DNA of 63,932 nucleotides from Myxococcota bacterium (GCA_963676915.2 CAXXVK010000003.1:1-63932), one strand, 5' to 3'. Counted from the first letter of the stretch, positions 10,933 to 56,508 are shown. Made by a program: numbers and translations. Notes: generated by a model not told the origin, from the sequence alone.

Positions 10933-12264
10933 TTACGGATCGTTTATTTCCGGTTGTATGCCGAATTTTTCAAAAAGTTCCTCCAGGCTTTCCTTTCGTA
11001 CGGTAGGTGGATCACCACGGAACAGGAAATACAAGGAATCTCCTTCGAAAAACTGAACGAGTTCCTCATCGATGGGTGGGCTGAAAGGAAAACAACTACC
11101 CAACCCTAACTCCCAGTTATCATTGAATTTTGCAGCGCAGAACTTTCGAACGTCCTCATTCCATACCGACGGAACCGACCACAGCCATTTTCCCGTAATT
11201 TCCAGCGATGGAAACGGCCAGGAATATCGGTAATCCGTCCGAACATCCGGGTCATTGTAGGAATAATGGGTTTCCAGTGCTGTCGGTTCGTTGAAATCCA
11301 CGATCCTCAAACGCTCAACGGCTGAGCTCCAACTGGGAAACCACAAGACAAGGGCATGATTCCCATCGATGCTGACACGTGAATCCGGTTCGATGCAACA
11401 GGTGTCCAACTCATCCAGAGTTTGCAGGTATTGAGGTTGTCCCTGGTCATCGAAATCGTAGAGTTTCCAGCGATCGATGTTGAAATCATCCTGAGAACTG
11501 TACAGGTGGCAATATTGGGTCGCTCGTTGGTCATCGGCCATGATCAAGGGGGATCTCCCGATGATAGTCCAGTCATCGTTTTCCAGTCCGAAAACGGAAA
11601 TCGGCTGAGGATTTTCAAGGTTTTGCCAATCCAACACCATGGTGATGTCCGCATAATGGGCAACTTCCTTGCCTCGTAAAAAAGCCTGGACCAGCCAATA
11701 CAAGCGATTTTCCCGCACGCTGAAAGCATAGCCGTGCAACACCTGTAAAACATCTTCAGGCAGGTTCGTCATGTCGGCCACACCCATTCGTCCCGTTTCG
11801 GTGGGAGTTCCCTCATTGTCCAGCGTGTAAAAGTTCAACGTGTCGTTTCCTGAAACGATCAGATTGTCTTCCCAGACAAACAAGGTGTTTTCCCGTCTGG
11901 AACCGCCGTACCCTTTTCGAGAAGGTGCCGATTCCAATTCCAACTCGTAAGAAGCCTTCCACCGTGGCGTATCCGAAGAGATCCGATCGAAAATGTGCAA
12001 CGTGGAATCGTCGAGCCAGTACAACCGATCTTCGAAAATTTTTACAGGGTTGCTGTTGCCGTACATTTTTATCGGCTTGTCGGATTCTGAAGGCGAATCT
12101 TCCTCGTACTCGGTATCGATTTCTTCACCGTTTCCAGGACGGTCGTTGTCTCCCAACGTACCGACCGGATGATCCGACGAACAGCCCGCAACAAGGCACA
12201 GCAAAAAACAGGATAAAAGCGAAAAACGCAGTCGAAAAGGCAAGTTGGAACGGTTTCCCATCAT
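10933..12264 (-). CDS. Beta-rich lipoprotein, tandem paralog 2
   Basis: ATG 12264 overlaps the upstream stop (ATGA); lipobox VAGC; shares LYWLDxSTLHxF, CCxEPDS and RKESLE with the neighbour. Confidence 0.8.
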   Translation of the reverse strand: MMGNRSNLPFRLRFSLLSCFLLCLVAGCSSDHPVGTLGDNDRPGNGEEIDTEYEEDSPSESDKPIKMYGNSNPVKIFEDRLYWLDDSTLHIFDRISSDTPRWKASYELELESAPSRKGYGGSRRENTLFVWEDNLIVSGNDTLNFYTLDNEGTPTETGRMGVADMTNLPEDVLQVLHGYAFSVRENRLYWLVQAFLRGKEVAHYADITMVLDWQNLENPQPISVFGLENDDWTIIGRSPLIMADDQRATQYCHLYSSQDDFNIDRWKLYDFDDQGQPQYLQTLDELDTCCIEPDSRVSIDGNHALVLWFPSWSSAVERLRIVDFNEPTALETHYSYNDPDVRTDYRYSWPFPSLEITGKWLWSVPSVWNEDVRKFCAAKFNDNWELGLGSCFPFSPPIDEELVQFFEGDSLYFLFRGDPPTVRKESLEELFEKFGIQPEINDP

Positions 12265-13646
12265 TGCAACGAAGACTCCTCCAAGGTTTGGAACCAATCT
12301 TCCAGGCTTTCTTTTCGTATCGAGGGACGATCGCCGGGAAACAGAATGTACAGATCATCTCCATCGACATATTGAACGAATTCCCTCTCGTCGGGAAGAT
12401 GGAACGACACGCAATTTCCCGGTCCCGGCTGCCACTGGTCGTCGAAAGTCGCCGCGCAAAACGTTTTCTGACTTTTATTGACGGCCCAGAGCCGGTCTCC
12501 CCGCAATTGTGTAGATTCCAATGGCCAATCGTAAGGCCATTCCCAATCCACTCCTTCGTCGAAACCTTCCGAAAAAAGTATGTCGAACGATGTGGGATCG
12601 CTTATGTCGAGTAGCGTCATCCGTTTAAAAAACGAAATGTTCGTTGGGTACCATAGGATCAACAACCGGTCGCCGTCGATACGAACTTGAGAGTCCGGTT
12701 CCCCGCAACAGATCTCGACGTTCTCCAGCGTTCCGATGGGAAACGGTTTGCCATCGTCGTCGAATTGAAAAAGCTTCCATAGATCGAAATTCGCATCGGA
12801 CGAAAGATCATAACGATGAATGTATTGGATCGCCAGTTGATCCCCGTGCAACAGAAGCGAAGAACGTTCGATGTGACTGTACCATCCCACGTTTATCTGG
12901 TCGTTGACGGTATCCACGATACGTAGGTTTTTCATATCGTGAAGATCCACGATCACATTGTTTTCCACATGCAGAAGATTTTCGTTACTCAGACCCTGGA
13001 CCAGCCAGAACAACAGTCCATCACGAACACTGAACACGTTGGATAGATTCGTCCAGGTATCCGGTATGATTTCCCGGTCGAAACTTGTAACGAGTTGAGG
13101 TTGTGGGGCGAGTTCACTGAAGGTGTAGAACCCCAAATGATCATGTGTGGAAACGATCAGTTTGCCGTCATCTACAAGGAGGGTTGGGGCTGCGCTGCCA
13201 CCGAACGATTTACGGGATACCAGCGACTCCAATGGGTAAGAAGCTTCCAGCGACCACGTATTCCAAAGGGTGATTTCGAAAACGTGCAGGGTCGAACCAT
13301 CGAGCCAGTAAAGGCTATGGTCCTCTATTTGTACGATGTCGCTGGTTCCGTGCAGTTCCCAAGGTTCATCGAGTGCGGAAAAGGATTCTTCTTCGTCCGA
13401 CGACTCCGATTCTTCAGAATCACGATCCCAATCCTGATCCAGGTCCATATCATGGTCGCCACCGGTTTCGACCTGGTCTTCATCGCTACTGGTTTCATCA
13501 GCAATTTCAACAAGTTCGTCATTGTCAAGGTTCCGGTCGTTATCGGCATTTTCTCCCGGCAAACCCACGGACGTCTCCGACGAACAACCCGCAAGTCCGA
13601 CAAGCAGGACGAGAAAAAGAAAAATCATCGGGCCACGGCGGCTCAT
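12261..13646 (-). CDS. Beta-rich lipoprotein, tandem paralog 1
   Basis: Probable start MSRRGPM (13646); lipobox LAGC; acidic linker; collinear similarity to the downstream gene. Confidence 0.8.
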   Translation of the reverse strand: MSRRGPMIFLFLVLLVGLAGCSSETSVGLPGENADNDRNLDNDELVEIADETSSDEDQVETGGDHDMDLDQDWDRDSEESESSDEEESFSALDEPWELHGTSDIVQIEDHSLYWLDGSTLHVFEITLWNTWSLEASYPLESLVSRKSFGGSAAPTLLVDDGKLIVSTHDHLGFYTFSELAPQPQLVTSFDREIIPDTWTNLSNVFSVRDGLLFWLVQGLSNENLLHVENNVIVDLHDMKNLRIVDTVNDQINVGWYSHIERSSLLLHGDQLAIQYIHRYDLSSDANFDLWKLFQFDDDGKPFPIGTLENVEICCGEPDSQVRIDGDRLLILWYPTNISFFKRMTLLDISDPTSFDILFSEGFDEGVDWEWPYDWPLESTQLRGDRLWAVNKSQKTFCAATFDDQWQPGPGNCVSFHLPDEREFVQYVDGDDLYILFPGDRPSIRKESLEDWFQTLEESSLQ

Positions 13647-14042
13647 TGGCTTCGCTTTCGACGCTAGGGGATGAAAAGATTTCGTATTATACCAATTCGA
13701 CGATCTTTTGTGCGATTTTTCTGCTTTTGTTTCTCGACTCTGGGAAAAGGGAAACGCCGGATGTCCTTGAAACGAATCTCTTTCCCATACCGCAAAACCG
13801 CGTCGAATCCTTCTATTTTGTGCCAGATCGTAGTCTGGAAAAACCGTCACAAAGTGTTGGATCAGGGGAACATTGGGTGGAAAATCGCCCTTTTTTCGTC
13901 ACAAAGGGTGGTATTTCGGGGAACATTGTGCCAGTCGGATTCGCTTTTGGAACGTTTTATTCCCTTCGTTCCCATTCATGGATGGTTTTGCGTCGAACAT
14001 CGCGATTCGGAACGGCATTTTTTACCCGAATCGAATCGGTTA

Positions 14043-14905: not shown

Positions 14906-14935
14906 GTTTAAATGGTGATATCCGCCTGATACAAC

Positions 14936-16123
14936 TCAGGAAATCACGCCGTGCTTGCGACCGACCTTGGTAAACGCGGCAATTGCACGGTCCAGATGTT
15001 CGCGGGTGTGACCGGCGCTGATCTGCACCCGGATGCGGGCCTTGTCGCGAGGAACCACCGGGAAGCTGAAGCCCTTGACGTAGATGCCCTCGGTCAGCAT
15101 GTCTTTGGCGATGTCCGCCGCCAGCTTGGCGTCTCCCAGCATGATCGGAGCGATCGGCGTGACGCCTTCGAGGATCGTGAAGCCGGTTTTCGACATTTCG
15201 TGACGGAAATAGTTGGTATTCTCTTCCAGAGTGTCGCGCAGGGTCGTGGTTTCGGAAATCAGGTCCAGCACCACCATGGAAGCGCTGACGATCACCGGCG
15301 ACAAGGCGTTGGAGAACAGATACGGGCGGCTGCGTTGACGCAGCAGGTCGACGATCTCGCCGTGGGCGGCGGTGAAACCACCGGAAGCTCCGCCCAACGC
15401 TTTACCCAGCGTGGAGGTGATGATGTCCACGCGGTCCATGACGCCCCAGTGTTCCGGGGTGCCGCGTCCGGTTCTTCCGATAAAGCCCGTGGCGTGGGAG
15501 TCGTCCACCATCACCAGGGCATCGTAGCGGTCCGCCAGGTCACAGATATCTTTGAGTTGGGCCAGGTAGCCGTCCATGGAAAACACGCCGTCCGTAGCGA
15601 TCATGCGCAGGCGTTTTCCCTGGGTTTTTTTGAGAATATCTTCCAACTCGTTCATATCGCTGTTTTTGTAGCGATGCCGTTCGGCCTTGCACAGACGAAC
15701 GCCGTCGATGATGCTGGCGTGGTTCAATTCATCCGAAATGATGGCGTCTTCCTTGCCAAGCAGCGTTTCGAAAAGCCCGCCGTTGGCGTCGAAACAGGAA
15801 GAGTACAAAATGCAATCTTCGGTTCCCAAAAAGGCCGCGATTTTTTTCTCCAACTCCTCGTGGATGTCCTGGGTTCCGCAGATGAAACGAACGGAACTCA
15901 TGCCGTAACCGCGTTTTTCGAGAGAGTTTTTGGCGGCTTCCATCACTTTGGGATGGGAAGAAAGTCCAAGGTAATTGTTGGCGCAAAAATTGAGCACGCT
16001 GCCCTGGGGAACTTCGATATCCGCGCCTTGCGGGGTCTGGATCGGCCATTCCTCTTTGAAAAGCCCGGCCTCTTTAATGCCCTTCAATTCGTCGGCCAGA
16101 ATCGATTTGAGTTTTCCGTACAT
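14936..16123 (-). CDS. kbl: Glycine C-acetyltransferase (2-amino-3-ketobutyrate CoA ligase)
   Basis: [37 protein letters not shown] (PLP Lys), [11 protein letters not shown]. Confidence 0.96.
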
Positions 16124-16450
16124 GGGTCTATCTCCATTCAGGTTTACGTTAAAAAGAAATGGGTTCAGATTGCAACGTCAAGCAACAAAAAGCGCCGGAA
16201 GAAAAAACGAAATATTCAACAAAAACCGGCTCTTCCACCATACTCGCCAGTCTTCCGACATCGTGAAATCACAGCAGAAACGACAACGTTGCAGGCATCC
16301 GAAACCATACCATTGCAGGATCGATCCTCAAACAAAAATCCTTGTTTGCCGTGGTTTGGGGGTGCAAACGTACGATGATTTGTAAGGATAGCGTGGATTC
16401 AAAATGGGAACCTGGATAACACTGTTTTTTCGATCAACCTGGCGTGAAAT

Positions 16451-18691: not shown

Positions 18692-20403
18692 GGTGAAGAC
18701 TTCCTTCGTTCGATTTCAGAAATCGCCTGGTTCGCGGCATCCTCCATAATGGGATCGCCCGAATCCTTCAGTTCATACAAGATCGGTAGCGCGTCCATAT
18801 CCCCGATATTCCCCAGCAATTCCACAATTCCCACGGCGGTTTCCGGGGAGAGGTCGTCCAGTTCGAGTTGGGAACGAGGCGCTCCGGCAAACTCCGGATC
18901 GATGACGCTACGAACGATCGGACCGAATTGCAAGGCCCAATCCGGGAGGATATCGCAGACATTCGCCACCGCCTTCATGATCAGCAACATCGTCTCGCTT
19001 AATTCCTCCCGCTCCCCTTTGAGCACGCTCAGATAGAACTCGATTCCCTCTTCGTCGAGCGATTGCGCCTGAATCAGTCCTTCCACCGCTGCTCGGCGCA
19101 TTTCGGAAAGGTCGTCTTTCAGGGCTTCGAGCAACATCAGCTCGCTTTTTCCAGGGTCAAGACCCGCCATGGCCGCCAAGGCTTCGACTCGGACGCTCGG
19201 ATCATCGTGAACGAGAAATGTTTGTACGGATTCCCAATGTTCCGATTGACCGATAGCACCGACCAGGTGGATTAAAGGTTGGAGTACTTGGGGTTCCAGG
19301 TAGGTTGCGTTTTCGAGTCGTTTGAGCAACTCGGGCATCGCCGGTTCGCCGATCTCGGCCAAGGCTTGCACGAAAATCTGGCGGATCTCGTCGTCGTCGT
19401 TCTGAATCAGAGCATCGAAGAGTATGGAAGCTCCCTCGGTTCCTGCATAAACGAGAATCACAGCCGCTCGAATCAGTAGGGAAGTGTTCTCTTGCACCAA
19501 CGCCCGTCCCAGGAATTCGGCCACCTCGTGATTCAATGCCGAACCGAACTGTTTTTCCAGAATCGCCGCCTGATCGGCCTGGACTTCATCGAGCATGGAA
19601 AGCAGGTAATCGAGCACGAATACGGAAACAGGCAGATCCTTCGCCGCTACCAGTTTGGGAACGGCAGCCAGCAGACGGGCAAAGCAATCCACGAATTCCG
19701 CCGGTGGCAAACTCGGTTTGCACGTGCGGGTGATTCCTTCGGGATCGCGGCGCAGGCTCGCCACCCATTCGTCATCCACTTCGGCTGTAAAGGTCGGTAA
19801 CAATTCCTCTTCGTGAGAAAATTCGAAATCGGTGGTCGATTCGTCCGCCACCGTGAAGTCCGTTTGCTCGTCATTGTCCGGCAAAGAAAGAAACTCGTCG
19901 TCTCCCATGGGAACGAAGGTCGGCGACTCGGGTTCGATGGTGATTTCATCCAACTCCATATGAGACGAAAATTGCGAGGAACTCGCCCCGAGAGTGGAGG
20001 TGGAATCCAGATATACGTCGATCATCCGTTTGTCGGTATCGGGAAGACCGTTAAACCGGAAAACGGACAACTGTGCGCCTTGAGCAAGGGTTTTGGTCGA
20101 ATCGATCAGTCCTTCCAAACGGATTTCCACGCTGTTGGGCAGCTCGATGATAATCTCCCGAACGTCGCCGATGACAGCCTGACTCGACGTTTGGGTGACA
20201 CAGATATTGTTGCTCCAAAAACGACGATAGTGGTCGGTGACTTCATCCGCGCTTTCGACGATGATCCGCAGCGGCTCGTTGCAATACCAGTTCGTTTTGT
20301 TGTTGCATGGTCCTGCAAAACGCATGGGTCGCCCGATCTTTCTTTCCGTGCCGGATCGTCTGCCTTGCAACGTCGATCCGGCGCTCTGATTCCATTCGAA
20401 CAC
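18688..20403 (-). CDS. PilZ-like N-terminal domain, acidic linker and HEAT repeats
   Basis: RKIGR (RxxxR) and beta-barrel-like segment; repeats such as DDDEIRQIFVQALAEIGEPA, HDDPSVRVEALAAMA, DDLSEMRRAAVEGL. Confidence 0.75.
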   Translation of the reverse strand: MFEWNQSAGSTLQGRRSGTERKIGRPMRFAGPCNNKTNWYCNEPLRIIVESADEVTDHYRRFWSNNICVTQTSSQAVIGDVREIIIELPNSVEIRLEGLIDSTKTLAQGAQLSVFRFNGLPDTDKRMIDVYLDSTSTLGASSSQFSSHMELDEITIEPESPTFVPMGDDEFLSLPDNDEQTDFTVADESTTDFEFSHEEELLPTFTAEVDDEWVASLRRDPEGITRTCKPSLPPAEFVDCFARLLAAVPKLVAAKDLPVSVFVLDYLLSMLDEVQADQAAILEKQFGSALNHEVAEFLGRALVQENTSLLIRAAVILVYAGTEGASILFDALIQNDDDEIRQIFVQALAEIGEPAMPELLKRLENATYLEPQVLQPLIHLVGAIGQSEHWESVQTFLVHDDPSVRVEALAAMAGLDPGKSELMLLEALKDDLSEMRRAAVEGLIQAQSLDEEGIEFYLSVLKGEREELSETMLLIMKAVANVCDILPDWALQFGPIVRSVIDPEFAGAPRSQLELDDLSPETAVGIVELLGNIGDMDALPILYELKDSGDPIMEDAANQAISEIERRKSSP

Positions 20404-20775
20404 AAGACACCAAAGGAGGAGGAAAGCACGTTTTTCGATCCCTCCTCCATTGGTCCCCTGGAAACAAAGACCTATTTAACCACAAACAACGAAAATCCTT
20501 CAATAAAATGAAGCAACTTGGTGGTTTTTGGGAGAATTTTTATTGTCGGAACAAACCGTAAAACGACGAGATCGGATTGTTTTTACCCAACAATTGCCAA
20601 AAACAACCGGAATGCCGGTTGAAGTTTCCCCGCCTGCAACATTTGTGATTTCAGGGAATTACGAAAAACCGTATAGAAAGACAAAAAGATACCTAAGCCG
20701 AAAACACGATTTCGACGGATGTATCTTTTCGTACATTTTTCGAAGGATGACAGACTCGTTCCAACAACGAAACGG

Positions 20776-21168
20776 CTATTCTTCGGCAATCAACGCTTCG
20801 TAGGCTTCTGCGTCCATCAAGTCGTCCAGTTCGTTTTCATCGACGTCCGTGAATTTCAGCAGCCAGCCGTCATCGAAAGGAGATTCGTTGATGTTTTTCA
20901 GGTTGGCATCGTCTTCGAGAAGATCTTCGTTGCGCTCTGCGATGGTCCCGGATACCGGGGCGTAAATATCGCTAACGGCTTTGGTCGATTCGATCACGCC
21001 GAGCGTGTCGCCAGCGCTCAACTCGTCGCCGCTTTCCGGCAGTTCCAGGTAGACGATCTCGCCGAGCTGCTCTTGCGCATGGTCGGTGATACCCATCAGG
21101 TAGCCGTCATCGGTCTTTTTGAGCCACTCGTGGTTTTTCGTATACAGGTAATCGGTCGGAACCTTCAT
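20776..21168 (-). CDS. gcvH: Glycine cleavage H protein (lipoyl carrier)
   Basis: ATG 21168 after GGAGG; YTKNHEW, GITDHAQEQLGEIVY, IESTKAVSD lipoyl-Lys motif. Confidence 0.95.
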   Translation of the reverse strand: MKVPTDYLYTKNHEWLKKTDDGYLMGITDHAQEQLGEIVYLELPESGDELSAGDTLGVIESTKAVSDIYAPVSGTIAERNEDLLEDDANLKNINESPFDDGWLLKFTDVDENELDDLMDAEAYEALIAEE

Positions 21169-21253
21169 GGAAATCCTCCGGATAAAAAAACCTTGTCGAT
21201 CCTCGAAACGTCCGGGCAGATCATAACCCAAGCGTTGAGGCGGTCAAGGTTTT

Positions 21254-21628
21254 TCAGCGAGGCTTGGACAGCAATTTGGCGACCGTCGCTTTAAGCTCGG
21301 TCATGTCGGCGGACTTGACGATGTAGGCATCGGCGGCCCAACTCATGTAGTTCTCTTTGTAGTGGGTGTACGCAGAGTTGATAATCACGGGTAAGCGATT
21401 GTTTTGACTCAATATTTCGTGCATGGCATCCACGCCGTCCATACCGGGCATCCGAATGTCCATGATGGCGAGATCCGGCTCTTCGCTCTGTACGAGTTTG
21501 ATGGCTTCCGGTCCCGTCGAAGCCAGAACGACTTCGTAGCCTTCGCTCTGGAACACTTCTTTATACAACTCCCGAATGTTCGGTTCGTCGTCTACGATCA
21601 GCAGTTTTTTCGGTTCAGGCATCTTCAT
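21254..21628 (-). CDS. Single-domain response regulator (receiver only)
   Basis: LIVDDE, MDIRMPGMDG, VKS; overlaps the kinase stop. Confidence 0.93.
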   Translation of the reverse strand: MKMPEPKKLLIVDDEPNIRELYKEVFQSEGYEVVLASTGPEAIKLVQSEEPDLAIMDIRMPGMDGVDAMHEILSQNNRLPVIINSAYTHYKENYMSWAADAYIVKSADMTELKATVAKLLSKPR

Positions 21629-46068: not shown

Positions 46069-49000
46069 TCACTCATCCTCTCCTTCCGGTCGAAATCCTC
46101 CGGACTGGTTTCCAAGCTGGGCAGTCACACCGGGATCGTCCCGTCTTTGGATTTCGTCGGTGGAATCCTTCGCCCACTGCCAACGGGTGAAATCGACTTC
46201 CTCGCCGGAGTCGTTCCAGCGCCAGCGACAGGTATAACTGCGCCAGACTTCCCGTTGATCTTCCGATAATAAATCCAGTTCAGCGGCGCGATTCATCACG
46301 ACATCGAAGATTTTCGCCGTCGCGGCATCCACGAGTCCACGGGTGGGCTTGTCCAGCAAATAGGTGAATTCGTACGGAATCGCTCCCAGGTTCTCGATTC
46401 GTTCCGCCTTGTAATACCGTTCCACTACAGCGGACGCCTCGGCAATGAGATCGTCTCGCGGTGTATAGGCCTGACGAATCTCGTCCAGATGTTTCGGGGT
46501 TTCCACAACCTGCCCGCGAATTCCCATGTGGGCGGCACGGAAGGCCCGAGCGGTGCGGCCTTCGTCGTTGGTATCCACACCCTGAATCGGATCGATTCCC
46601 AGGCTGGACGCCGCACTGACCAGTGCTCCCGAAACATCCCAGTTATCCAAGGGAGCGATCTGGTTGATCAATGCGGTCACACCGGCATGATCACGCGCCA
46701 GTTTGAAGGCATGGTCCAATTCTTCAGTTGTTTTCAGGCCGAGTTGAATCGATCCACCCGCGCCGAAGTTTTCGGAAGCTTTTTCGAACGTTTTTTCGTC
46801 GATGGGCTGTCCTCCGCTGCTCTCAAGCACCAGCGTATCAGCCAATTCCCGCGCTTTTTTGAAGTCTTCGGCGGAGGCATCGGGAGACAGAATCACGGCG
46901 GCTTTTTCTCCCAACGCTTTTACGGAAGATTCGTAGGAGTGTAGCGATTCGCCCCTGAGATCCACCTGCACCTGCGAGGCTGACTCGGGGTCGAAATCAC
47001 CCAAGCGCTTGGAATCGATCCGCAGGATGGCCAGGCGGTCCGGCACGATGGCGCGATTCATCGGCAGCGGTTCGTCGAACAGCGGCGATTCGGAAGCCGC
47101 CAGACGACCCAAGGTATCGAGATCGAACAATCCGTTGGAAAATTTCTCCGCTCCCGGATGAGGTTTGATCGTCAGTTTCGGCGGCGGGAACTGCACCTGC
47201 CGAATACCTGCGATGTGTTCCAGGTGAATCGACCATTTGCCGTCGAATCCCATCGCTGCAGCTTTTTCGGCGTCGATTTTCGCAAGTTCCGTGGAAATCG
47301 ATGGTGTAATGGCGTCGATGGCGATCTGTCCGTTGGCGTGGGCCGCTTCGACGGTCCGGCGCTTGGCATAGTGCTGGAATTCGAACTGATAGTTCTGATC
47401 CCATCCGCGTGTAGCCGCAACGTAATCCACATGACCGTATATCAGCGAGATGATTCGAGGACTGGCGGCGGCGATTTCATCCACATATTCCACCGCCAGC
47501 GGATGTTCGATCAGCAACTCCAGCTTGATCCGTCCCACAGGCCAGCCGTTGGCGATTTCCAACGCCGTCAACACCCGGTCGATTTCCTCGATTTCACGGG
47601 GATCGCGGGATTTCGGAATGGTCAAAGCGTCGATGCGATCTCCGACGTGGCGTACCACCTCGTAATAATCGGCAGCCGAAGCCGTGGTGCGTACATTGTT
47701 GGGACGCAGTTTGAGCACTTTGCCGCCGAAGTCCAGATGGCCCAGCGAATCGGCCAGCACGCGCCGCGTTCCTTCGTTGGCCAGATAGCTTTTCAACAGT
47801 TTTTGTTGCGGACGCTTCATGGCCTTCAAAAAGTCTTCGCCGCCTTTCTTTCGGAAGTCGAGGGTAGCCATCAGGCTTTCGAGATCGTGAACGTCCGGGT
47901 TCATCAGAGATTCGGTTATATTTGCCCCTTTCAGGCGCGAACGCGCCGTCTGCAAAGCGGCGACCAGTCCCTTTTTCGCAGGGCTGGAATCCCGACGAAC
48001 GCGGTGGAAGGTTTCCACGGCACGGGGTCGGGCCTCGCGGCGCATGGTCGGTGAAACGGCGTCTTCAAGATCGATCAACGCGGCATTGACATCAGGGTCG
48101 GCAGCGCTGTTCTCGGCATCACGCGGTCTCGTCACGGGAAAAACGTTGATGATCTTCTGCTGCACCAGCGTTTCGGCCAGTTTTTCATCCGAACTTTGCA
48201 CGTCGGACGTTTCATTGACCGCTGTCTCCTTTTTGGTAACGCCACCGACATACAGCAAGCGCCCCAGAGAGTCCGCAACTTCCATGCCAACGGCGATGGA
48301 GCGTCCCGGTTGTACGCCTTCGAGTTTGTCCACAACGGTCGTAACGGCCAATTCTCCCGCTTGAATCGAAACGTCGGCGTGACTCCATGTCGCGTCAAAC
48401 TGTTTCTTTCCACGTTCGGTCGCCAACAAACGATCCAACGTGCGCTCGATGGTGGAAGGCAGCGCTTTTTTCAACAACTTCCCAGCTTTGCCACTTAACG
48501 GCAACGCATCCAGGAAACTCGCGGCGCTCTCGGTGCTTTCCACGGCTTTTTGCACGTCGGCGTTCGTGGCTCCGGCACGCTCGACACTTCGCTTGAGTTC
48601 AAAAATGGCGCGACGTGTATCCAGCAAACTCGTGCCGGTCAGTACGTACCCCGGAACGAAGCTTGCGGACGCAAACGACAGAAGCTGAATCCCCAACGCA
48701 CCCGAAAAGGCCGCGTCGCCTCCCGGGAAAAGCTGTCGGGTTGCGGCGATACGGTCGGTGTCGAGTTCATAGGTGAATGTTTCGTTATCCCCCTCGCTGA
48801 AGTCGGGAGCAGGACGAGGCTCGAAGGCAACGGTATCTTTGGAATACGCCTTCAGATCGATCTCTTCGGTTCGAGGATAGGACGTGGAACGAGGGGAAAG
48901 CCAGGCCGTCGCATCGAAGAGAATGTCTCCCCAGCCGTTGACGGCCTGAAGTCCGACTTTGATTTCCTGCGGCGCGGCATCGAGAATTTCTACAATGGGT

Positions 49001-52000
49001 CGCACCGTATCACCGATTTTGACCGGTGCTTTGAACGAAGGCTGCTCCACGGCTGTAATCTCCATCGACGGAAAACGCCGCCCGACATCGGCAAGCACGA
49101 TCCCTTCGGACCCGACACCATGCAGAATCACCGCGCCGTAACGGGTACGTGCGGCATAGTCCTCATCGAGGTGGTAGCTGTTGCGATCACCGCTGGAGGT
49201 GGCAAGCGCCTTGATGAAATCTCCCGTTACTTTCAGCGGTTCTCCGAGATAAGCGCGACCCGGCAGAGCATCGAGAGATTCCACACCCGCCAGAGTGCCA
49301 ATCGAATGAATACGCACGCCTTCATCGATCCCTTTTTCCGAACGCAGCTTCTCCAGCGCATAAGCGCTTCCCGCGCTTCCAAGTTGAATCAGGTTACGGA
49401 TACCGCCCTCGACCATCGCGGCCATGGTGGCGGACCATTTTAGCGGGGTGGTGAAGGTGCGTTTGAGGTTGTCGAGAATTTTGGCTTTCGAATCGAGCGG
49501 CTGGCCCGGATCGAGCGTCGAGAGCATCGGCAGGCGTGTAGCTGCGATATCGAGGCCATCCACGAAATCCAGGTAACCTTGAAGAATGTCGGTGGATTGC
49601 GCCAACCGTGGTTCGTGAGCGGCGCAAGGATTGTTTGAAACCAGGGCACGACCGCCGGCCTGTCCCACAGCTTCTTCGAGCTTCGTCAGGTTTTCGCGAG
49701 GCAGCGCCACGATAAACAGTGTCTTGGACTCCTCGATGACCACCGAAGCCCCCAAAGGCTTGGTTACATCCAGCATGCGGTCGTAGTCGAGATTTTCGAC
49801 GACAGCCATGCGCAGACCGATATCGTCGGCGCATCCGGCAAGGGAGGCGGCCCAGCGGTAGGCAACTTCCACCGCCGTTTCGTCGGAGAGCGCCCCGGAT
49901 ACGGCGTAAGCCGCCGGTTCGCCCATGCTTTCGCCCACCACGACGGCAGGTTCGCCGTGAACGTCGAAGAAACGCCGTGCCAGCGCGATACTGACGACGG
50001 TTTGAGCGGCGACACTCAACGGGAAGTTCCCGTCCCAGTCCCAACCGCCCCCTTCGACCTGTATGCGTCGAGCCTGGTTTTCACCGGACATCAGGGCGCG
50101 CAATTTACCTTTGGACACACCGAGTTTCTCAAGTGCGACTTCGGCGTGATTCACCAGGTTGATAAGATCGGCATCCAGGTCGAGATCCGCTCCCATGCCG
50201 GGCCAGTGCGAACCTCCCGTCGGGAAGATCAACGCCGATTCGGAAGCTTTCAAAACCGGGGGCGCCACAGGCTTTTCAGGCTTGGAAGTCTTTGTTTTGC
50301 TTTCGTTTTTAGAATTTTCACCTTTGCGCAACTGAGCGCGAGCCAGCTTGCCGAAGTTACTCTTGGCCAGATCCCCGACGATTTCCACAAGCGTCGGTGT
50401 CTCGTGGGCTTCAAGTAGCGGCTTGGCGGCTTCGATAACCGATTCCGGGGTCAGTTCGGCACCGGCCGCCGGAACCACAAAAGCTTTGACACGGTTGGTT
50501 TCGATACTGTCGTCAAAGACTCCGATCACACCGACCTCGGCCACGCCATCAAGCGTCAACAACGCTTGCTCCACCGTTTCCGGGTATACATTGAGTTCGT
50601 TGACCGTAAACATGTCGTCGGCGCGTCCCTGGAAGACGAAGTAGCCGTCGCGGTCCATTTTGAAGATATCGTCCTTCTGCCACCAGCCATCGAGCATCAC
50701 CTTTGCGCTGGCTTCCGGGCGTCCGGCGTAGCCTGAAGACAGATGCGGTCCACGAATCTGGAGTAAACCGGCCACACCGGGAGGTTCCACCTCTCCGGTC
50801 ACGGCGTTGACGATTCTGGCTTCCACGTTCGGTACGGGAATTCCCTCGGTACCCGCACGATTGGTGCGGGCGGGATTCATCAGACTCGAAGGCGTTTCCG
50901 TCGAACCGTAACCCGAGCAGGGAATTACGCCGAAACGTTGTCGCCAGATTTCGGTTACAGCCGGTGTCAACGTATCGCCGCTGGAGGCAATGCGATGCAA
51001 ATGGGAAAGGTCGGCGGATTCGGGAATCATCCGGGCCAGCGTCGCCAGCGCCGAACGGGAGGAAAACAGAATACTGACGTTTTCGTCCACCATCGAGTCG
51101 GCTACGATACTGAGATAGCGCGGTCCGGTGTTGGGGACCACAAGAGCATCCGCTCCCGTGAGGATCGGTGTGAGCACACCGGTGGCGAAACCGTAGGTAT
51201 GAGTGAACGGCAGAGTGGTTGCAACCACATGGGACCGCTCGTCATTCTCCGGGATCATTGTAATGCCTCGCTGCAGACCCAGCGCCAACATACTTTTATG
51301 GGAATGTACAGCCGCCTTGCTTACCCCGGTCGTCGTGCCCCCGGTATAAGGCCATGCGAGTGGATCGTCCGGGGAAACATCCGCAATAACAGGCTCATCC
51401 GATGCTTTTAGCAACAGATCGCGCAATCGGAAAACTTTGACGTTTTTGCCCAACGCATGACTGAATTCCTCTTCGCTTTCCGGTGCACGAGACGGCTCGG
51501 CTCCAGGTACGAAATCTTCCACGCCGGTCAATACGACGGCTTGGAGCGAAGGTACTTTTACCAGAGCTTCGGCGAATTTTCGCGGCGGATCGAGCTTTCG
51601 ATCCCACAAGGCTTTGAACTCGGGTTGAAGTTCGGCAGGAATCAGCTTTGCCAAACTGTCGCGAGCCGTGGCGGAATCGTCGGCTGTCAGCTTTCGGCGT
51701 GCCTTGCGCAACTCGGCCATGAATGCGGTATCGTCATCGAGATCGTTCTCTCCGGCCCAGGCCATCAGTCGAGCGTGATGCAGTTCGGCGTCATCTCCAC
51801 CGGTTCCGGCATCGAAAAACAGGGCTTTGGCTTCGGCATCGTTGAAAAAGCGGTCGGCCAGATGAGCTTTGGATGGGTCCAGCGGCACAATCACCGCCCC
51901 GATGGAGGCCGCCGCCTGGAAAACCGCTACATTGGCCAGGGTGTTACTGGTCGATAAAGCGATGCGGTCGCCTTTTTGGATGCCCAACTCCATGAGGATG

Positions 52001-52362
52001 TTGGCAACACGGTTGGCGCCGGTTTCGAGAATATCGAGAAAGGGAATATCGGCGGTCAGCACTTCGCGTTCGCCTGTACGAGTGACGCGTTCGGCCTTGT
52101 AGTGAAACGCTTTGTCGGAATGCTTTCGGGCCGATTCCAACAGAACTTCCGGCAGGGTTTTGTCGGGAACGTCTACGGTTGCTGGGACTCCCTTGTCGTA
52201 AAGCAGGGTCCATTTGGCGCGCCAGTATCGTTCGAGCGCGTCTCCCTCCATACCCTTTCGAGCTACTGCTGCATCGAGCACCCGCAGGTCTTCTTCCATA
52301 CGAAATGCATGGTCGGGGTCCGCAACGTTTTCGTCTCGAATCAATGCTTCAAAACTTTCCAA
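46069..52362 (-). CDS. Multidomain enzyme: acyl-CoA ligase, acyltransferase, MaoC hydratase, second hot-dog, CitE/malyl-CoA lyase barrel, degenerate CitE barrel
   Basis: YTGGTTTGVSK, GYGSTE, GRADD, KSNFGK (ligase); FPTGGSHWPGMG, GESMGE (AT); SGDRNSYH..ILHG (MaoC); IDLEDAV, LRPNN, IEHP, GHVDY, GFDGKWSIH (CitE). The TTG start has no SD; probably continuous with the upstream ORF. Confidence 0.88.
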   Translation of the reverse strand: MESFEALIRDENVADPDHAFRMEEDLRVLDAAVARKGMEGDALERYWRAKWTLLYDKGVPATVDVPDKTLPEVLLESARKHSDKAFHYKAERVTRTGEREVLTADIPFLDILETGANRVANILMELGIQKGDRIALSTSNTLANVAVFQAAASIGAVIVPLDPSKAHLADRFFNDAEAKALFFDAGTGGDDAELHHARLMAWAGENDLDDDTAFMAELRKARRKLTADDSATARDSLAKLIPAELQPEFKALWDRKLDPPRKFAEALVKVPSLQAVVLTGVEDFVPGAEPSRAPESEEEFSHALGKNVKVFRLRDLLLKASDEPVIADVSPDDPLAWPYTGGTTTGVSKAAVHSHKSMLALGLQRGITMIPENDERSHVVATTLPFTHTYGFATGVLTPILTGADALVVPNTGPRYLSIVADSMVDENVSILFSSRSALATLARMIPESADLSHLHRIASSGDTLTPAVTEIWRQRFGVIPCSGYGSTETPSSLMNPARTNRAGTEGIPVPNVEARIVNAVTGEVEPPGVAGLLQIRGPHLSSGYAGRPEASAKVMLDGWWQKDDIFKMDRDGYFVFQGRADDMFTVNELNVYPETVEQALLTLDGVAEVGVIGVFDDSIETNRVKAFVVPAAGAELTPESVIEAAKPLLEAHETPTLVEIVGDLAKSNFGKLARAQLRKGENSKNESKTKTSKPEKPVAPPVLKASESALIFPTGGSHWPGMGADLDLDADLINLVNHAEVALEKLGVSKGKLRALMSGENQARRIQVEGGGWDWDGNFPLSVAAQTVVSIALARRFFDVHGEPAVVVGESMGEPAAYAVSGALSDETAVEVAYRWAASLAGCADDIGLRMAVVENLDYDRMLDVTKPLGASVVIEESKTLFIVALPRENLTKLEEAVGQAGGRALVSNNPCAAHEPRLAQSTDILQGYLDFVDGLDIAATRLPMLSTLDPGQPLDSKAKILDNLKRTFTTPLKWSATMAAMVEGGIRNLIQLGSAGSAYALEKLRSEKGIDEGVRIHSIGTLAGVESLDALPGRAYLGEPLKVTGDFIKALATSSGDRNSYHLDEDYAARTRYGAVILHGVGSEGIVLADVGRRFPSMEITAVEQPSFKAPVKIGDTVRPIVEILDAAPQEIKVGLQAVNGWGDILFDATAWLSPRSTSYPRTEEIDLKAYSKDTVAFEPRPAPDFSEGDNETFTYELDTDRIAATRQLFPGGDAAFSGALGIQLLSFASASFVPGYVLTGTSLLDTRRAIFELKRSVERAGATNADVQKAVESTESAASFLDALPLSGKAGKLLKKALPSTIERTLDRLLATERGKKQFDATWSHADVSIQAGELAVTTVVDKLEGVQPGRSIAVGMEVADSLGRLLYVGGVTKKETAVNETSDVQSSDEKLAETLVQQKIINVFPVTRPRDAENSAADPDVNAALIDLEDAVSPTMRREARPRAVETFHRVRRDSSPAKKGLVAALQTARSRLKGANITESLMNPDVHDLESLMATLDFRKKGGEDFLKAMKRPQQKLLKSYLANEGTRRVLADSLGHLDFGGKVLKLRPNNVRTTASAADYYEVVRHVGDRIDALTIPKSRDPREIEEIDRVLTALEIANGWPVGRIKLELLIEHPLAVEYVDEIAAASPRIISLIYGHVDYVAATRGWDQNYQFEFQHYAKRRTVEAAHANGQIAIDAITPSISTELAKIDAEKAAAMGFDGKWSIHLEHIAGIRQVQFPPPKLTIKPHPGAEKFSNGLFDLDTLGRLAASESPLFDEPLPMNRAIVPDRLAILRIDSKRLGDFDPESASQVQVDLRGESLHSYESSVKALGEKAAVILSPDASAEDFKKARELADTLVLESSGGQPIDEKTFEKASENFGAGGSIQLGLKTTEELDHAFKLARDHAGVTALINQIAPLDNWDVSGALVSAASSLGIDPIQGVDTNDEGRTARAFRAAHMGIRGQVVETPKHLDEIRQAYTPRDDLIAEASAVVERYYKAERIENLGAIPYEFTYLLDKPTRGLVDAATAKIFDVVMNRAAELDLLSEDQREVWRSYTCRWRWNDSGEEVDFTRWQWAKDSTDEIQRRDDPGVTAQLGNQSGGFRPEGEDE

Positions 52363-54743
52363 GCGCTGTTCGAGATCGGTTTTCGGGGAGTATCGGGCAA
52401 AAATACCGCCTGATCACCACTCCCCAGACGGATGCCATCGTACTCCCGTAACGCTTCAAGGATCGCTTCGGGCGCTCCGAAACCATCTCCCAGCGATAGC
52501 GGCCCACGCAGCACGGCGATGCCGAGTGGCCGGGCAATGGATCGGATCGAACCGGCTCCGTGCTCCAACGCTTCTTCGGCTTCTCGAATGCGACGAACCT
52601 GGGCGTCATGCTCGGATTCTCCAGGCTTGAGAATGAAAAACCAGCCCAGTTGCGCAGGTAATGTCGCTCCCAGTTCCACAGCAGAAATGCGCGGAGTGGA
52701 CATCAGAACGGTGCGGGCGTTGTCCAAGGCGAGAGGAGATTCCAGAACCGCCTGGATACCGACCGAACCTTTGGTCAGGCCGAGCACGCCTTCAAGTTCC
52801 GTCAGTTCGTCATCCAGCGCCCAGACATCTTCCGGCGTTTCGACTTCGGCCACGACATCCAACAGATTTTCACGCAATTCCGGGAAAAAGCTTCGAATTT
52901 CCTCTTGCGCTTCGGGAATGTCACGGCTGAGTTTGAGCGAAAGTTTTTTGCCCGAAGCCGTCCACGTTTTCGCAACATCCAGAGCAAGATTTCGGGCTTC
53001 TGCGAGGGTTTGCGTACTGACGCGCTCAAATTGCAAATTCAGTACGATTTCACCGTACGCCGAGATTTTTTCGAACGAATCTCCGGCCCGTGCAAGCAAC
53101 GAAACCCGCTTGGAACGGTGGCGCGAAGGCGTGACGGCAAAAAGTTTTGCACGACGCCGCTTTTCGGTTTCAAAAGGATCGGCCACGGCAAGAGCCACAC
53201 CCGGCTCACCGGCAGACGCGGCGTCTTCCGTCGTGGCGGGTGCTGCGATCTTGGGTTCGGGAAAATCAGGCTCGATACGTCCGGCCAGCAAATCGTCCGT
53301 TCGGGTAAGAATTTCGCGCACCTTGGCCGCCGCTCCGGCAGGAGCGACCAGTTCCTGCAACTGAACCCCCATTTCGCGCTTGACTTGCCGCCGCAGGTCT
53401 TTGTCCTGCTTGGTGGCGAACTTCAGCAACTCTTCAATTCCCTTGTCGGTAAGGGAGGCTTCTTCTTTCGTGAAAAGCTCGGAATCATCTTTGAAGCGAT
53501 CCAGCAAACGGAACAGCGCCGGATTCATACCGTCAGGCGTCAAAAAACCGAAACTTTCGTGCAATTCCGATAGTTCCATCTCCAGCACGATGAACGTTTT
53601 CGAGGCAATCCGGCGCTTGGAACCGTCGCCCATTTCCAGATCGAAGGACGGCCTCACGGGATTGCCTTCGAGTGTATCGGTGACGAGTGCTTCGGCCCGA
53701 AGCCGCTGTTCATCCGAAGCCTGAGAAAGCCTCGCCAGTTGCCGCGCCATTCCAGCGGCTTCCTGGAACCACTCATACACAAGCTCTTCCCCATCGGTCT
53801 TGAACGAAGGGTCTTCGAAATGCGCGGCTTCATGCAGCAGTTCGCTTCTCAGCAGCAAGTCACGAGCATCGGAAAGATCCTCGGGACCATCGAACAGGCC
53901 GTAGTTGACCAGCACCGCCCCTCGTGCGCCTTCGGACAGTTCCGGGGCATGCTCGATGGCGGCGTAGGATTCGGCATCCAACGTCAACGCAAGAAAATGA
54001 AGCTGGGCAAACGGAGCCAACTTTCGGAAATCGTTGGATTCTTCCGCATTATCGAGGTTGTCGTACGCTTCGGGATGAACTTCGACCACTCGAAATTCGA
54101 GACCGCAACGACGAGCGAGATCGAACACGGGGCCAAGCTCAGGATCGTCGGCCTTGGCCATCAGAGCATTAAAAACGTCCCCTTCGGCATGGAAGATCGG
54201 AGGAGGAGGAGCTTCGGCAGCGGGGCTGCCCTGCAACAGTTCCATGACATCCGTGCGCGACTTTTCGTAGTTTTTCACACCACCCGTTTTAGCCATGGGA
54301 CGTACGTTGTCCAGCGTTCGAGCGTGCGCGGGAAGCACGACAGCCGCCACGGCATGTCCGCCATCGTGAGAGATCGAAACCGACACTTCGGCAGACGAAA
54401 TCCCCGTTTTACGAGCCACAGAGGCGGGAAAATCCAAGGTCGGCGAACCGTCTTCGAGATGCCGAAGCACCACATCGTGTGGCGAAAGCGCACCCGAGGC
54501 AATGCCCGTTCCGATCGCTTTGAAAAACGCCTCTTTCGCTGCCCAGGCTCCGGCTAGACTGGCCGCTGGACTCTTTCGACTTTCGGCATAGGCAATTTCG
54601 TCTTCCGAAAAATTTTCCCGAAGCGAAATCGACGAGACGTTTTCGAAGTCTCGGGTTTCGACGATATCCACACCGACTCGCCCGGCAGTCTTCGAAGACG
54701 CACCCAGCGTTCGTTCCATCTCCTGTAAGTATTGCTCCACCAT
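52341..54743 (-). CDS. AcpS-type phosphopantetheinyl transferase fused to an HExxH-containing region and a degenerate CitE barrel
   Basis: VGVDIV, LAGAWAAKEAFFKA, SISHD (PPTase); LLHEAAH; AEVETPED..LTELE..GIQAVLESPLAL..PRISAVELG (CitE-like). Confidence 0.85.
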   Translation of the reverse strand: MVEQYLQEMERTLGASSKTAGRVGVDIVETRDFENVSSISLRENFSEDEIAYAESRKSPAASLAGAWAAKEAFFKAIGTGIASGALSPHDVVLRHLEDGSPTLDFPASVARKTGISSAEVSVSISHDGGHAVAAVVLPAHARTLDNVRPMAKTGGVKNYEKSRTDVMELLQGSPAAEAPPPPIFHAEGDVFNALMAKADDPELGPVFDLARRCGLEFRVVEVHPEAYDNLDNAEESNDFRKLAPFAQLHFLALTLDAESYAAIEHAPELSEGARGAVLVNYGLFDGPEDLSDARDLLLRSELLHEAAHFEDPSFKTDGEELVYEWFQEAAGMARQLARLSQASDEQRLRAEALVTDTLEGNPVRPSFDLEMGDGSKRRIASKTFIVLEMELSELHESFGFLTPDGMNPALFRLLDRFKDDSELFTKEEASLTDKGIEELLKFATKQDKDLRRQVKREMGVQLQELVAPAGAAAKVREILTRTDDLLAGRIEPDFPEPKIAAPATTEDAASAGEPGVALAVADPFETEKRRRAKLFAVTPSRHRSKRVSLLARAGDSFEKISAYGEIVLNLQFERVSTQTLAEARNLALDVAKTWTASGKKLSLKLSRDIPEAQEEIRSFFPELRENLLDVVAEVETPEDVWALDDELTELEGVLGLTKGSVGIQAVLESPLALDNARTVLMSTPRISAVELGATLPAQLGWFFILKPGESEHDAQVRRIREAEEALEHGAGSIRSIARPLGIAVLRGPLSLGDGFGAPEAILEALREYDGIRLGSGDQAVFLPDTPRKPISNSAWKVLKH

Positions 54744-54787
54744 AGGGGTTCCTTTGCTTCCGATTGCGAAATTTTTGGTAATACGGG

Positions 54788-55957
54788 TTATAAAATGACG
54801 CTGTAAGGCCAGTTTTCGCGCAGAGCGTAATCCGGCAGTGCTTCAATGATTTTCCAGGTGAATTCGAGGTTGGCGGGCGGCAGCGTTCCCAAAGCGGCCG
54901 CTTTGAGCAGGCTTTGCAGCGCTTTGCCGAACATCGGCGGGTCCAGCATTTCGCCCTTGTGCAGAATCGCACCACCGTTCAATGCTCCGGCATCCAGCGC
55001 TTTTTGCAGGATCTCGATCCGGTCTTTGATCCGCAATGGCGACGGGTAAAAGGCCGCACGGCCCAACGGAATATGATAGGGGTGAATGACCTGCTTGCCC
55101 GTCAAACCGAGTTGCGATTCCTCATAGGCATGCGCGAACACGATGCGGGAAGGCTCGTCCGCATCCTCCTGTAACCACTGTTGAATCTCTTCCCATTCTA
55201 CGAAATCCGGCATTTTTTTCTTGCCGATCAGCGTATCGACGCCCCCGACCACGCCTTTGCCTGCAATTCGCGCTTCGAACAGCAGATTGTCGCGGTAGGT
55301 TTTCAGCTCGTTGGGCCAGTTTTCCGGAGTGATGCGAATTCCCATGGCTTTGGAAAAATCGTGTATGCCGAACACAACGTGGCAAACGGGATCGTAGGAG
55401 AGGATTTCGTCCACGATTTTCAAGCTTTTCGGGTGTTCGATAATCGGCTCCACTGCGATGGCGGCCTGAATACCGACCAGCCACGACGCCAAATCACGAA
55501 TTTCGGCGGCTCCGTATTCTTCCCCTGCTTTGGCCAGTTCGAGGACATGGATTTTGTCTTTGAGATCTTTGACCATTTCCAGGTCTTTGTTGAACTCTTC
55601 CGACAAGAACTGATTGATACGAACGGCAATAATCAGATCGTCTCTCTCCAGCTTCGGCAGAACCTTGCGCAGAAAATCGCGACTCTCTTTTTTGCGCTGG
55701 CAACCGTCTTCCAGGTCGAAAACCAGGGTTGTGGCCTTTGTCGTGGCTCCCCACTTCCAGAAACGCTGCTCGGCCTGCTCGAACGTTTCATAGGTGTTTT
55801 TCTCCGGGATGAATTTGATCGGCGGGTAATACAATTCGATTCCGGGCCAGCGACCGGTTTCATGCACCGAGCCGGTCGATGTCGGCGTTACGCCGAAACG
55901 CTGGTTGTGTATATGCCGGTGCTCGATAGGGGAACGTCGGGTGTTTTCGATTTCCAC
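54788..55957 (-). CDS. CitE/malyl-CoA lyase (HpcH/HpaI aldolase-citrate lyase) family enzyme
   Basis: GTG start after AAGGAGG; VFDLEDG, AVRIN, IIEHP, FGIHDF, GKQVIHP, GEMLDPPM; all canonical residues present. Confidence 0.9.
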   Translation of the reverse strand: MEIENTRRSPIEHRHIHNQRFGVTPTSTGSVHETGRWPGIELYYPPIKFIPEKNTYETFEQAEQRFWKWGATTKATTLVFDLEDGCQRKKESRDFLRKVLPKLERDDLIIAVRINQFLSEEFNKDLEMVKDLKDKIHVLELAKAGEEYGAAEIRDLASWLVGIQAAIAVEPIIEHPKSLKIVDEILSYDPVCHVVFGIHDFSKAMGIRITPENWPNELKTYRDNLLFEARIAGKGVVGGVDTLIGKKKMPDFVEWEEIQQWLQEDADEPSRIVFAHAYEESQLGLTGKQVIHPYHIPLGRAAFYPSPLRIKDRIEILQKALDAGALNGGAILHKGEMLDPPMFGKALQSLLKAAALGTLPPANLEFTWKIIEALPDYALRENWPYSVIL

Positions 55958-56508
55958 GGTTTTTCCTCCTTGGCGACTCCTATACGGAGGCCGTCAGGTG
56001 TTCAACGAATCGTCTTCCAGTAGGACAGGTTCCAAGAAATACAAGACCGATACGAGACAACGTTGGTGTCATTTCGTTCCATATATGCCAAACCTGATCC
56101 TTGAAGATTGTTTCCTATACCAAGTAATAACGACTACAAGTTCGTTCTTCTTAACTATGAGGAATAATTTTAAGAATCAAGTCGATAGACTTAATTTCAT
56201 CATATTTTTTTTCGAAGGAGTAAAAGAAGCATCGGGGAACCGCAGGAAATCAAAACTCAATCAAGAGAAATTGCGGAAAAGGGGTTGGGTATCCAAGAAT
56301 TCCTGGTAAAAAATTCCTTCCCTTGTTCCCGAACAAAGCGTTCTTTCTCTTTCCCTTTGCTTGGGAACGTGGTATGCACCGAAAACAAAGAACATGGGTG
56401 GCCGTAGGCTCCGATCCGCAACCCGCCGTTTTCCTGAAAACGAAGCCGTGGAGGATGGATTTTCGAGCGAAGGGCCGTGGAATCTATAACGGAAAGAAAG
56501 GGACGATC

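Follow-up and report, generated by a model that had tools for sequence, protein, structure and literature searches.

Assemblies built only from long reads are reported to retain errors at a rate of about one in 5 kb; over 80% of these fall in homopolymers, and indels of this kind shorten the proteins predicted from them (PMC8442456). A bacterial gene may also be read in two overlapping frames by programmed -1 frameshifting, as described for dnaX and for the transposases of IS elements. Here, we consider a window of 63,932 nucleotides from a Myxococcota bacterium (GCA_963676915.2, CAXXVK010000003.1:1-63932; the assembly is called G000 below), in which two overlapping minus-strand open reading frames (ORFs) of 800 and 2097 aa make up, by comparison with their homologues, a single gene, cut by one missing base, whose product is a multidomain enzyme of about 2,890 residues. 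The base is very probably missing because the consensus is in error, through sequencing or assembly, and its absence would then not be a feature of the organism.

The upstream ORF (52341..54743, minus strand; 800 aa) begins with ATG and the downstream ORF (46069..52362, minus strand; 2097 aa) with TTG. Both are present as the initial annotation had described them, and a rereading of the sequence bore out its further particulars: the upstream-frame codons GAT CAG GCG GTA TTT TTG CCC, a T5 run at 52399-52403 (minus strand; A5 on the plus strand), and a second frame that stays open from 52413 (SGGIFARYSPKTDLEQRLESFEAL...) until it joins the 2097-aa ORF, with an overlap of 73 bases between the two frames (52341-52413). 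The upstream frame ends at a premature TGA (52341..52343, minus strand), which is reached 16 codons past the frame change and overlaps a TTG at 52344-52342 as TTGA. It is from this second TTG that the database-called protein P0002 would start, judging by its length (2091 aa, six codons shorter than the 2097-aa ORF). The TTG at 52362 had been remarked upon for its lack of a Shine-Dalgarno sequence, and indeed neither TTG is preceded at the usual distance by a purine tract of that kind.

That the two ORFs are one gene, with a one-base frame change adjoining a short homopolymer, had been proposed beforehand, and both a genome of the same genus (G001) and a set of fused homologues support the proposal. 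In G001, a single open frame of 3163 codons spans the junction with no stop; over residues 1-788 of the upstream ORF the identity is 80%, the frame then continues, and protein P0003 is the product of this gene (99% identity over residues 1-2889). A search with the downstream ORF found 92 proteins, eight of which cover at least 97% of it: the window's own 2091-aa call (P0002), six fused proteins (P0003-P0008; 2869-2910 aa, 54-84% identity) with an N-terminal phosphopantetheinyl transferase (PPTase) of the ACPS type, and one 2605-aa protein at 34% identity without ACPS. The fused proteins agree in size with the roughly 2891 aa proposed for the joined product, and among the relatives of the downstream ORF, over searched lengths of 1153-3670 aa, none but P0002 had the length of about 2100 aa that a split form would have. 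Far from being consistently two genes, the full-length homologues are unsplit in all six cases, and all six cross the junction as single proteins: by tblastn each gives exactly two high-scoring pairs, one in frame -1 and one in frame -3, which meet at 52365-52425. In the case of P0003, residues 1-786 map to 54743-52380 in frame -1 and residues 785-2889 to 52386-46072 in frame -3. The dN/dS ratio relative to G001 is 0.10 over 783 codons of the upstream part and 0.086 over 2105 codons of the downstream part, and the 8.7 kb of the gene contain this one break only. A scan of the genome contigs, using the family alignment with two peptide patterns, returned only an unrelated AMP-binding match.

The alignments and tblastn place the one-base deficit, relative to all homologues, within 52384..52392 (minus strand), an interval that includes a C4 run at 52385-52388 (minus strand; G4 on the plus strand), followed at once by an A4 run. 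Alignment does not fix the exact base and the interval is all that is claimed; the C4 run is most likely the site of the loss. MAFFT sets the gap after 52392, with four mismatches nearby by manual count; a gap in the C4 run entails five nucleotide mismatches but gives a better peptide match (DTPPKT vs DEPPKT). The junction stretch varies in sequence between homologues. The T5 run, to which the initial annotation had assigned the break, was considered and rejected, the break lying 7-19 bases further downstream and the later codons being still aligned in frame with G001. Because the run is not the site, a count of A5 versus A6 in the reads there would have no bearing on the split. The window's GTA TTT TTG CCC GAT and the GTT TTT CTG CCG GAC of G001 correspond codon for codon (V-F-L-P-D) beyond the T5 run, the junction in G001 reads QAVFLPDEPPKTDLEQRLESFEAL, and the downstream frame matches G001 from (S)PKTDLEQ onward. 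An insertion at T5 would yield QAVFFARYSPKT, for which the homologues give no support.

The domain that holds the break is predicted to have the HpcH/HpaI fold, in which C-terminal helices follow a TIM-barrel, and its model superposes on solved members of the family. An AlphaFold2 model of residues 530-900 of the G001 orthologue (mean pLDDT 82.7) aligns by VIA-align with 4l80_A (Z 23.2, rmsd 3.8, 275 aligned, model range 1-303) and with 1sgj_A (Z 21.6), and Foldseek matches the domain model at E 5.8e-11; the Pfam score of this first lyase-like copy is below the family cut-off (22.2 vs 25 bits). In the model, the break would fall at about residue 256, in a loop between the barrel and the C-terminal helices, within a block (residues 251-260) of mean pLDDT 67. 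A natural split at a domain border was looked for and not found at this site, the break lying inside the span aligned to malyl-CoA lyase.

The upstream part of the gene (52389..54743, minus strand; codons 1 to about 785, ending ...QAVFLPDT) contains the 4'-phosphopantetheinyl transferase (ACPS; 54417..54680, minus strand; PF01648, E 2.9e-14, residues 22-109; TIGR00556, E 1.5e-20), a region of about 415 aa without a Pfam match, and the barrel of the first malyl-CoA-lyase/CitE-like domain, whose approximate limits from the AlphaFold2 model and VIA-align are 52225..53153 (minus strand). The downstream part (46069..52386, minus strand; about 2105 codons plus the stop) resumes with the C-terminal helices of that domain and continues, on the same strand, with an AMP-binding acyl-CoA synthetase and its C-terminal subdomain (50347..52026; PF00501, E 1.2e-54; PF13193), whose best solved relative is the malonyl-CoA synthetase 4fuq (E 4.2e-44), a FabD-like acyltransferase (49591..50229; PF00698, E 1e-09), a MaoC-like hotdog (48979..49263; PF01575, E 1.1e-10), a second HpcH/HpaI (CitE-like) domain (47224..47769; PF03328, E 3.3e-17) that overlaps DUF6986 (PF22484, E 8.8e-06), and a C-terminal region. 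The upstream neighbour is a separate 389-aa HpcH/HpaI (CitE-like) protein (54788..55957, minus strand; PF03328, E 4.8e-10), kept beside the gene in G001 as a 389-aa ORF at the same place. For the region of residues 145-560, protein atlas scores (0.75-0.76) were under the atlas noise level, Foldseek gave no PDB match at E <=0.001, and the best wide VIA-align match (Z 5.4) was under the noise guide. Literature searches found no paper on DUF6986, and none that joins three of the four components CitE-like, MaoC, AMP-binding and phosphopantetheinyl transferase. As far as these searches show, the architecture of about 2,890 aa is rare and undescribed within the literature covered; it may merit interest in its own right, and the gene is to be annotated as a single protein of that length.

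Similarity of the window to G001 is limited (blastn: 46073-56211 and 14920-16127 only), and the error rate was consequently measured genome-wide and not within the window. For this purpose 274 non-shadow ORFs of at least 200 aa, from 490 kb of G001, were compared with G000, and 166 of them were orthologue-like (89,444 aligned residues). Abutting frame switches in G000 numbered 27 and affected 22 of these 166 orthologous genes, or about one gene in eight, which amounts to one switch in roughly 10 kb of coding sequence; the reverse control gave four events from 332 G000 ORFs and 124,133 residues. Homopolymers of at least four bases were present in 12 of 16 junction windows of at most 29 nt, compared with 22-35% of windows taken at random. 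Among the broken genes are SecA, MurJ (with three switches), Der/EngA, PriA, NifS and IlvE; for murJ and der, G000 has no other close copy. In-frame stops were counted as well, with 70 for G000 and 109 for the control; over-long ORF starts together with shadow ORFs raise both figures, which cannot separate sequencing error from gene decay. Two other suspicious ORF pairs or triplets of the window, at 10933-13850 and 20307-21294, gave no usable G001 orthologue or only a short frame.

The split is in itself ordinary for this assembly, and since such breaks are found throughout it, the one described here needs no biological cause. Three explanations had been offered at the outset, namely a sequencing error, a recent frameshift mutation and recoding; an error of sequencing or assembly is by far the best supported of these, and recoding is unsupported. 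The assembly lacks one base in the interval 52384-52392, with the C run as the likeliest place, and this throws the frame so that the TGA is met 16 codons later. The single gene, the position of the break and the assembly-wide pattern of errors are shown by the comparisons; from them we infer that the break is one of the homopolymer-associated one-base errors that run through the assembly. Several observations sit less comfortably with an artefact. The event is a one-base deficit, whereas the direction of the others is mostly an excess (16 are +1 and four are -1), and the C run is only four bases long. The sole public run containing the stretch, X1 (contigs; word depth 3.2), bears on the question in both directions. 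Two of its contigs stop at the C run, with ends at 52388 and 52360, and neither spans it by 31 letters on both sides, with no differences listed; these ends at most hint that the reads may disagree with the consensus. Against an artefact, the second record (52360-52900, no differences) has the same C4 allele as the window, flanked by 25 bases. Some at least of the reads would then have that allele, provided that the window was not itself assembled from these data.

It is unlikely, by our assessment, that the frameshift is real, whether as a recent mutation or as a strain-level or phase-like variant, such that the gene is inactivated or gives two polypeptides (the 800-aa PPTase product and a product of about 2,090 aa re-initiated at the stop-overlapping TTG). 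The C4 allele in an X1 contig is in keeping with a real change, a contig end exactly at the run would fit two run lengths among the reads, and the TTGA overlap, a point that also weighs against an artefact, could allow re-initiation if the break were real; furthermore, the break lies in a predicted surface loop of moderate model confidence whose sequence varies among homologues. Set against this are the 26 further breaks in 21 other genes of the 166, some of them essential, the unbroken state of all six full-length homologues, the absence of a Shine-Dalgarno-like tract before either TTG, and the structural consequence that the barrel would be parted from its own C-terminal helices. Constraint is not relaxed downstream of the break, as the low dN/dS there attests, although this says only that a real break would be recent. 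About half as probable as a real frameshift in general is a population in which the C run at 52385-52388 exists in two lengths among cells, switching between the enzyme of about 2,890 aa and the pair of 800 and about 2,090 aa. Programmed -1 ribosomal frameshifting or transcriptional slippage, yielding a short PPTase product alongside the full-length enzyme, is highly improbable. In its favor, a -1 shift anywhere in the 73-base overlap would join the frames, the A4 run (CGA AAA C) could allow re-pairing of tRNA-Lys, and immediately downstream folding predicts a hairpin (-31 kcal/mol, z -2.16), which 7 of 200 shuffles equal and which does not clearly stand outside the range of shuffled sequence. 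Against it, the overlap holds no in-frame X XXY YYZ heptamer (codons 52415 to 52341), its runs of 4-5 bases are far below the lengths at which transcriptional slippage is known, G001 and the five other homologues read the junction in one frame, and the assembly-wide breaks are a simpler cause.

The consensus error that we favor carries a practical warning, in that signals of split genes, pseudogenes or recoding drawn from G000 need checking against relatives.

Set beside described systems, the first lyase-like domain shares its predicted fold with the malyl-CoA lyase of Chloroflexus aurantiacus (4l80), and the match crosses the break to the C-terminal helices; the likeness to the malyl-CoA lyase/CitE group extends to the second such domain and to the separate CitE-like neighbour gene. 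Sequence identity is only 16%, and the domain here is one part of a chain of about 2,890 aa that also carries a PPTase, an acyl-CoA synthetase, an acyltransferase and a MaoC domain. The locus resembles the -1 frameshifting of dnaX and the IS-element transposases in that its two frames overlap, the downstream frame lying in -1, and in that a short product would correspond to a defined N-terminal portion of the long product. It differs from that type in having no slippery heptamer, a shift in none of the six homologues and a hairpin not clearly set apart from shuffled sequence, and recoding is regarded as unsupported because the heptamer is missing and no homologue shares the shift. A further likeness is to the homopolymer indels of long-read or low-coverage drafts, on which the IDEEL test is based. 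Unlike the documented cases, the error here is deduced from comparison. The correspondence nonetheless extends to the one-base change at a short homopolymer, to the intact full-length homologues and to the presence of the same defect in essential genes, and the rate in G000 of about one per 10 kb is of the same order as the value of about one per 5 kb given for long-read-only assemblies (PMC8442456).

Judged from sequence comparison, the 800-aa upstream ORF (minus strand, 54743 to 52341, with an ATG start) and the 2097-aa downstream ORF (minus strand, 52362 to 46069, with a TTG start at 52362 and a frame one base back from that of the first) are one gene. The frames share a 73-base overlap, the downstream one being open from 52413 into the 2097-aa ORF as the initial annotation had described; the minus-strand codons that it quoted are present as given, as is the T5 run at 52399-52403 (A5 on the plus strand). 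The upstream ORF carries an AcpS-type 4'-phosphopantetheinyl transferase domain (PF01648, E 2.9e-14; TIGR00556, E 1.5e-20) and, towards its end, an HpcH/HpaI (CitE-like) match that is weak (22.2 bits, under the cut-off of 25). In the downstream ORF, domain search places AMP-binding, AMP-binding_C, Acyl_transf_1 and MaoC domains along with another HpcH/HpaI domain, overlapping DUF6986. A search of 40 relatives found residues 1-788 of the upstream ORF matched at 80% identity in the same-genus genome G001, within a single open frame of 3163 codons without a stop; in ten other genomes the match is confined to the PPTase or a short piece. As a database query, the downstream ORF retrieved 92 proteins, eight of which cover at least 97% of it: the window's own called protein (P0002, 2091 aa), six full-length homologues (P0003-P0008) of 2869-2910 aa and 54-84% identity, all six with an N-terminal ACPS domain, and one relative of 2605 aa and 34% identity without ACPS. 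The other 84 match through the ligase or acyltransferase part only, with a cover of at most 29%, and are mostly NRPS or PKS, a few having AMP-binding or other domains alone. No second protein of ~2100 aa was found among the 92 matches besides the window's own, a length within the searched range. The G001 gene is itself one of the six homologues, P0003 (99% identity across residues 1-2889). The initial proposal of a single protein interrupted at a homopolymer is correct.

When the six homologues were compared with the window by tblastn, each gave exactly two abutting HSPs, one in frame -1 and the other in frame -3, so that the 8.7-kb gene has exactly one break. With P0003, the first HSP (residues 1-786) ends at 52380 and the second (residues 785-2889) starts at 52386. 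The junction reads QAVFLPDEPPKTDLEQRLESFEAL in G001, QAVFLPDTPRKPISNS in the upstream frame of the window and ..YSPKTDLEQRLESFEAL in its downstream frame. The observation in the initial annotation therefore stands as described except for the location of the break, which it had put at the T5 run: the V-F-L-P-D codons after this run remain in frame with G001 in the alignment, and the run is accordingly ruled out. DNA alignment to G001 requires one gap in the window, positioned after 52392; an alternative gap in the C4 run (minus strand, 52385-52388), which gives DTPPKT against DEPPKT, is about equally good, and the claim is therefore limited to the interval 52384-52392, within which the missing base would fall, most likely in the C4 run.

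The most likely cause of the break is an assembly error, which, of the three causes initially offered, is the one favored by breaks found genome-wide, and the interest of the observation as biology is low. A 490-kb sample of G001 (C3:590000-1080000) provided 274 non-shadow ORFs of at least 200 aa for tblastn against the whole of G000, the assembly to which the window belongs; a frame switch was counted where HSPs that reached 60% identity and 40 aa abutted in query and subject alike, and a looser first pass, which flagged more genes, was left out of the count. Orthologue-like matches were obtained for 166 ORFs, 22 of which show 27 frame switches in 89,444 aligned residues, or ~1 per 10 kb. The reverse test, with G000 ORFs of at least 150 aa against the same 490 kb, yielded four events in 332 ORFs (124,133 residues), including at least one mirror image of a G000 break. 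With respect to sign, 16 of the 27 events are +1, four are -1 (the present event among these) and seven are larger or unresolved. By manual count, a homopolymer of at least 4 lies in 12 of 16 junction windows of at most 29 nt (11 of 15 without the present event); random G000 windows of 18-29 nt contain one in 22-35% of cases. The broken genes include those for SecA (C24:118706-118708), MurJ (three frame switches, C27:4492-5656), Der/EngA (C7:5207-5208), PriA (C72:58308-58309), NifS, IlvE and a YgiQ radical-SAM protein. Neither murJ nor der has another close copy in G000, and the secA paralogue there stands at 41%. Frameshifts in murJ and der cannot be borne by a free-living bacterium of ~5 Mb genome size; these breaks are consensus errors, and the one studied here has the same appearance. 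Elsewhere in the window, three short overlapping same-strand ORFs of 84, 91 and 191 aa (20307-21294, plus strand) and an overlapping pair of 454 and 529 aa with no Pfam match (10933-13850, minus strand) are candidate frame breaks, for which G001 offered either a short frame or no orthologue that could be used.

The stretch is also represented in one public sequencing run, X1 (kept as contigs), in which 0.99 of sampled words are present and which may be the window's own source. Two of its contigs, at a word depth of 3.2, match 51900-52900 without difference and meet at the break site: one (51900-52388) ends on the C4 run's first C, the other (52360-52900) bears the C4 allele, and neither spans the run with 31 letters on each side. 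In a de Bruijn graph, reads that disagree on the length of a run produce a contig end exactly at its edge. The contig ends fit reads differing in run length, which is a hint, not proof; by our own arithmetic, a random 29-base overlap within the 1001 bases compared would touch the 9-base interval of the break with a chance of ~4%.

A real, recent frameshift or strain variant is an improbable explanation. Relative to G001, dN/dS is 0.10 over the 783 codons upstream of the break and 0.086 over the 2105 codons downstream of it, from which a real break would have to be recent. Were it real, the TTG at 52344-52342, the start implied by the 2091-aa length of P0002, could allow re-initiation. This codon overlaps the premature TGA as TTGA (52341-52344, minus strand), most likely by chance, a start codon in this position being expected, by our estimate, at ~3 in 16 stops. 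By eye, no Shine-Dalgarno-like tract precedes either TTG, as had been noted for that at 52362. A natural two-gene form is disfavored by structural modeling. In an AlphaFold2 model of residues 530-900 of the intact G001 orthologue (mean pLDDT 82.7), the break lies in a loop after the last barrel strand and a short helix (model residues 239-250) and before three further helices (model residues 259-317). Model residues 1-303 align with malyl-CoA lyase 4l80_A (Z 23.2, rmsd 3.8, 275 residues aligned), a match that crosses the break at ~residue 256; the break thus cuts through a folded domain and does not fall between domains. That recoding joins the two frames is scarcely credible: in its zero frame the overlap is free of X XXY YYZ heptamers, the runs are only 4-5 bases long, and the shift is found in none of the six homologues. 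A hairpin of -31 kcal/mol is predicted just downstream, with z -2.16, and 7 of 200 shuffles fold equally well.

Read as one gene (46069-54743, minus strand; counterpart G001:C3:624932-633598), the locus codes for a protein of ~2,890 aa with, in order, a PPTase, a Pfam-less region, a malyl-CoA-lyase-like domain, a malonyl-CoA-synthetase-like ligase (nearest 4fuq, E 4.2e-44), an acyltransferase, a MaoC domain and a CitE-like/DUF6986 domain; a search of the six homologues at E up to 1 found a PP-binding carrier domain in none of them. This architecture is rare. In a set of 401 genomes sampled from the phylum, only G000 and G001, which are of one genus, have the gene at full length, and the remaining matches are to the ligase domain alone; a search of a large protein collection gave only six full-length relatives, and two peptide patterns scanned across 185,579 species genomes retrieved no related sequence. 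The combination of ligase, MaoC hydratase and CitE-like lyases is reminiscent of malyl-CoA, mesaconyl-CoA and citramalyl-CoA chemistry. No paper on DUF6986 or this set of domains came up in a literature search. Directly upstream lies a separate 389-aa HpcH/HpaI (CitE-like) gene (54788-55957, minus strand), whose place next to the giant gene is conserved in G001, which brings the CitE-like modules at the locus to three. Residues 145-560 of the upstream ORF (window ~53064-54311, minus strand) are conserved with no Pfam match, and have an invariant H-E-x-x-H (LHEAxHFE) in all six homologues. Their model (mean pLDDT 67) has as best structural neighbors the zincin-like HExxH proteins BlaR1, ArdC, Ste24 and an HExxH oxygenase domain, at Z of at most 5.4, which is within noise; a zincin-like domain within a CoA-ester enzyme is possible.

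Other split-gene or pseudogene signals from G000 should be regarded as suspect. Long-read-only bacterial assemblies are reported to carry ~1 error per 5 kb, over 80% of these in homopolymers, and such indels truncate predicted proteins (PMC8442456). The rate of breaks in G000 is of the same order as that published for these assemblies (PMC8442456).
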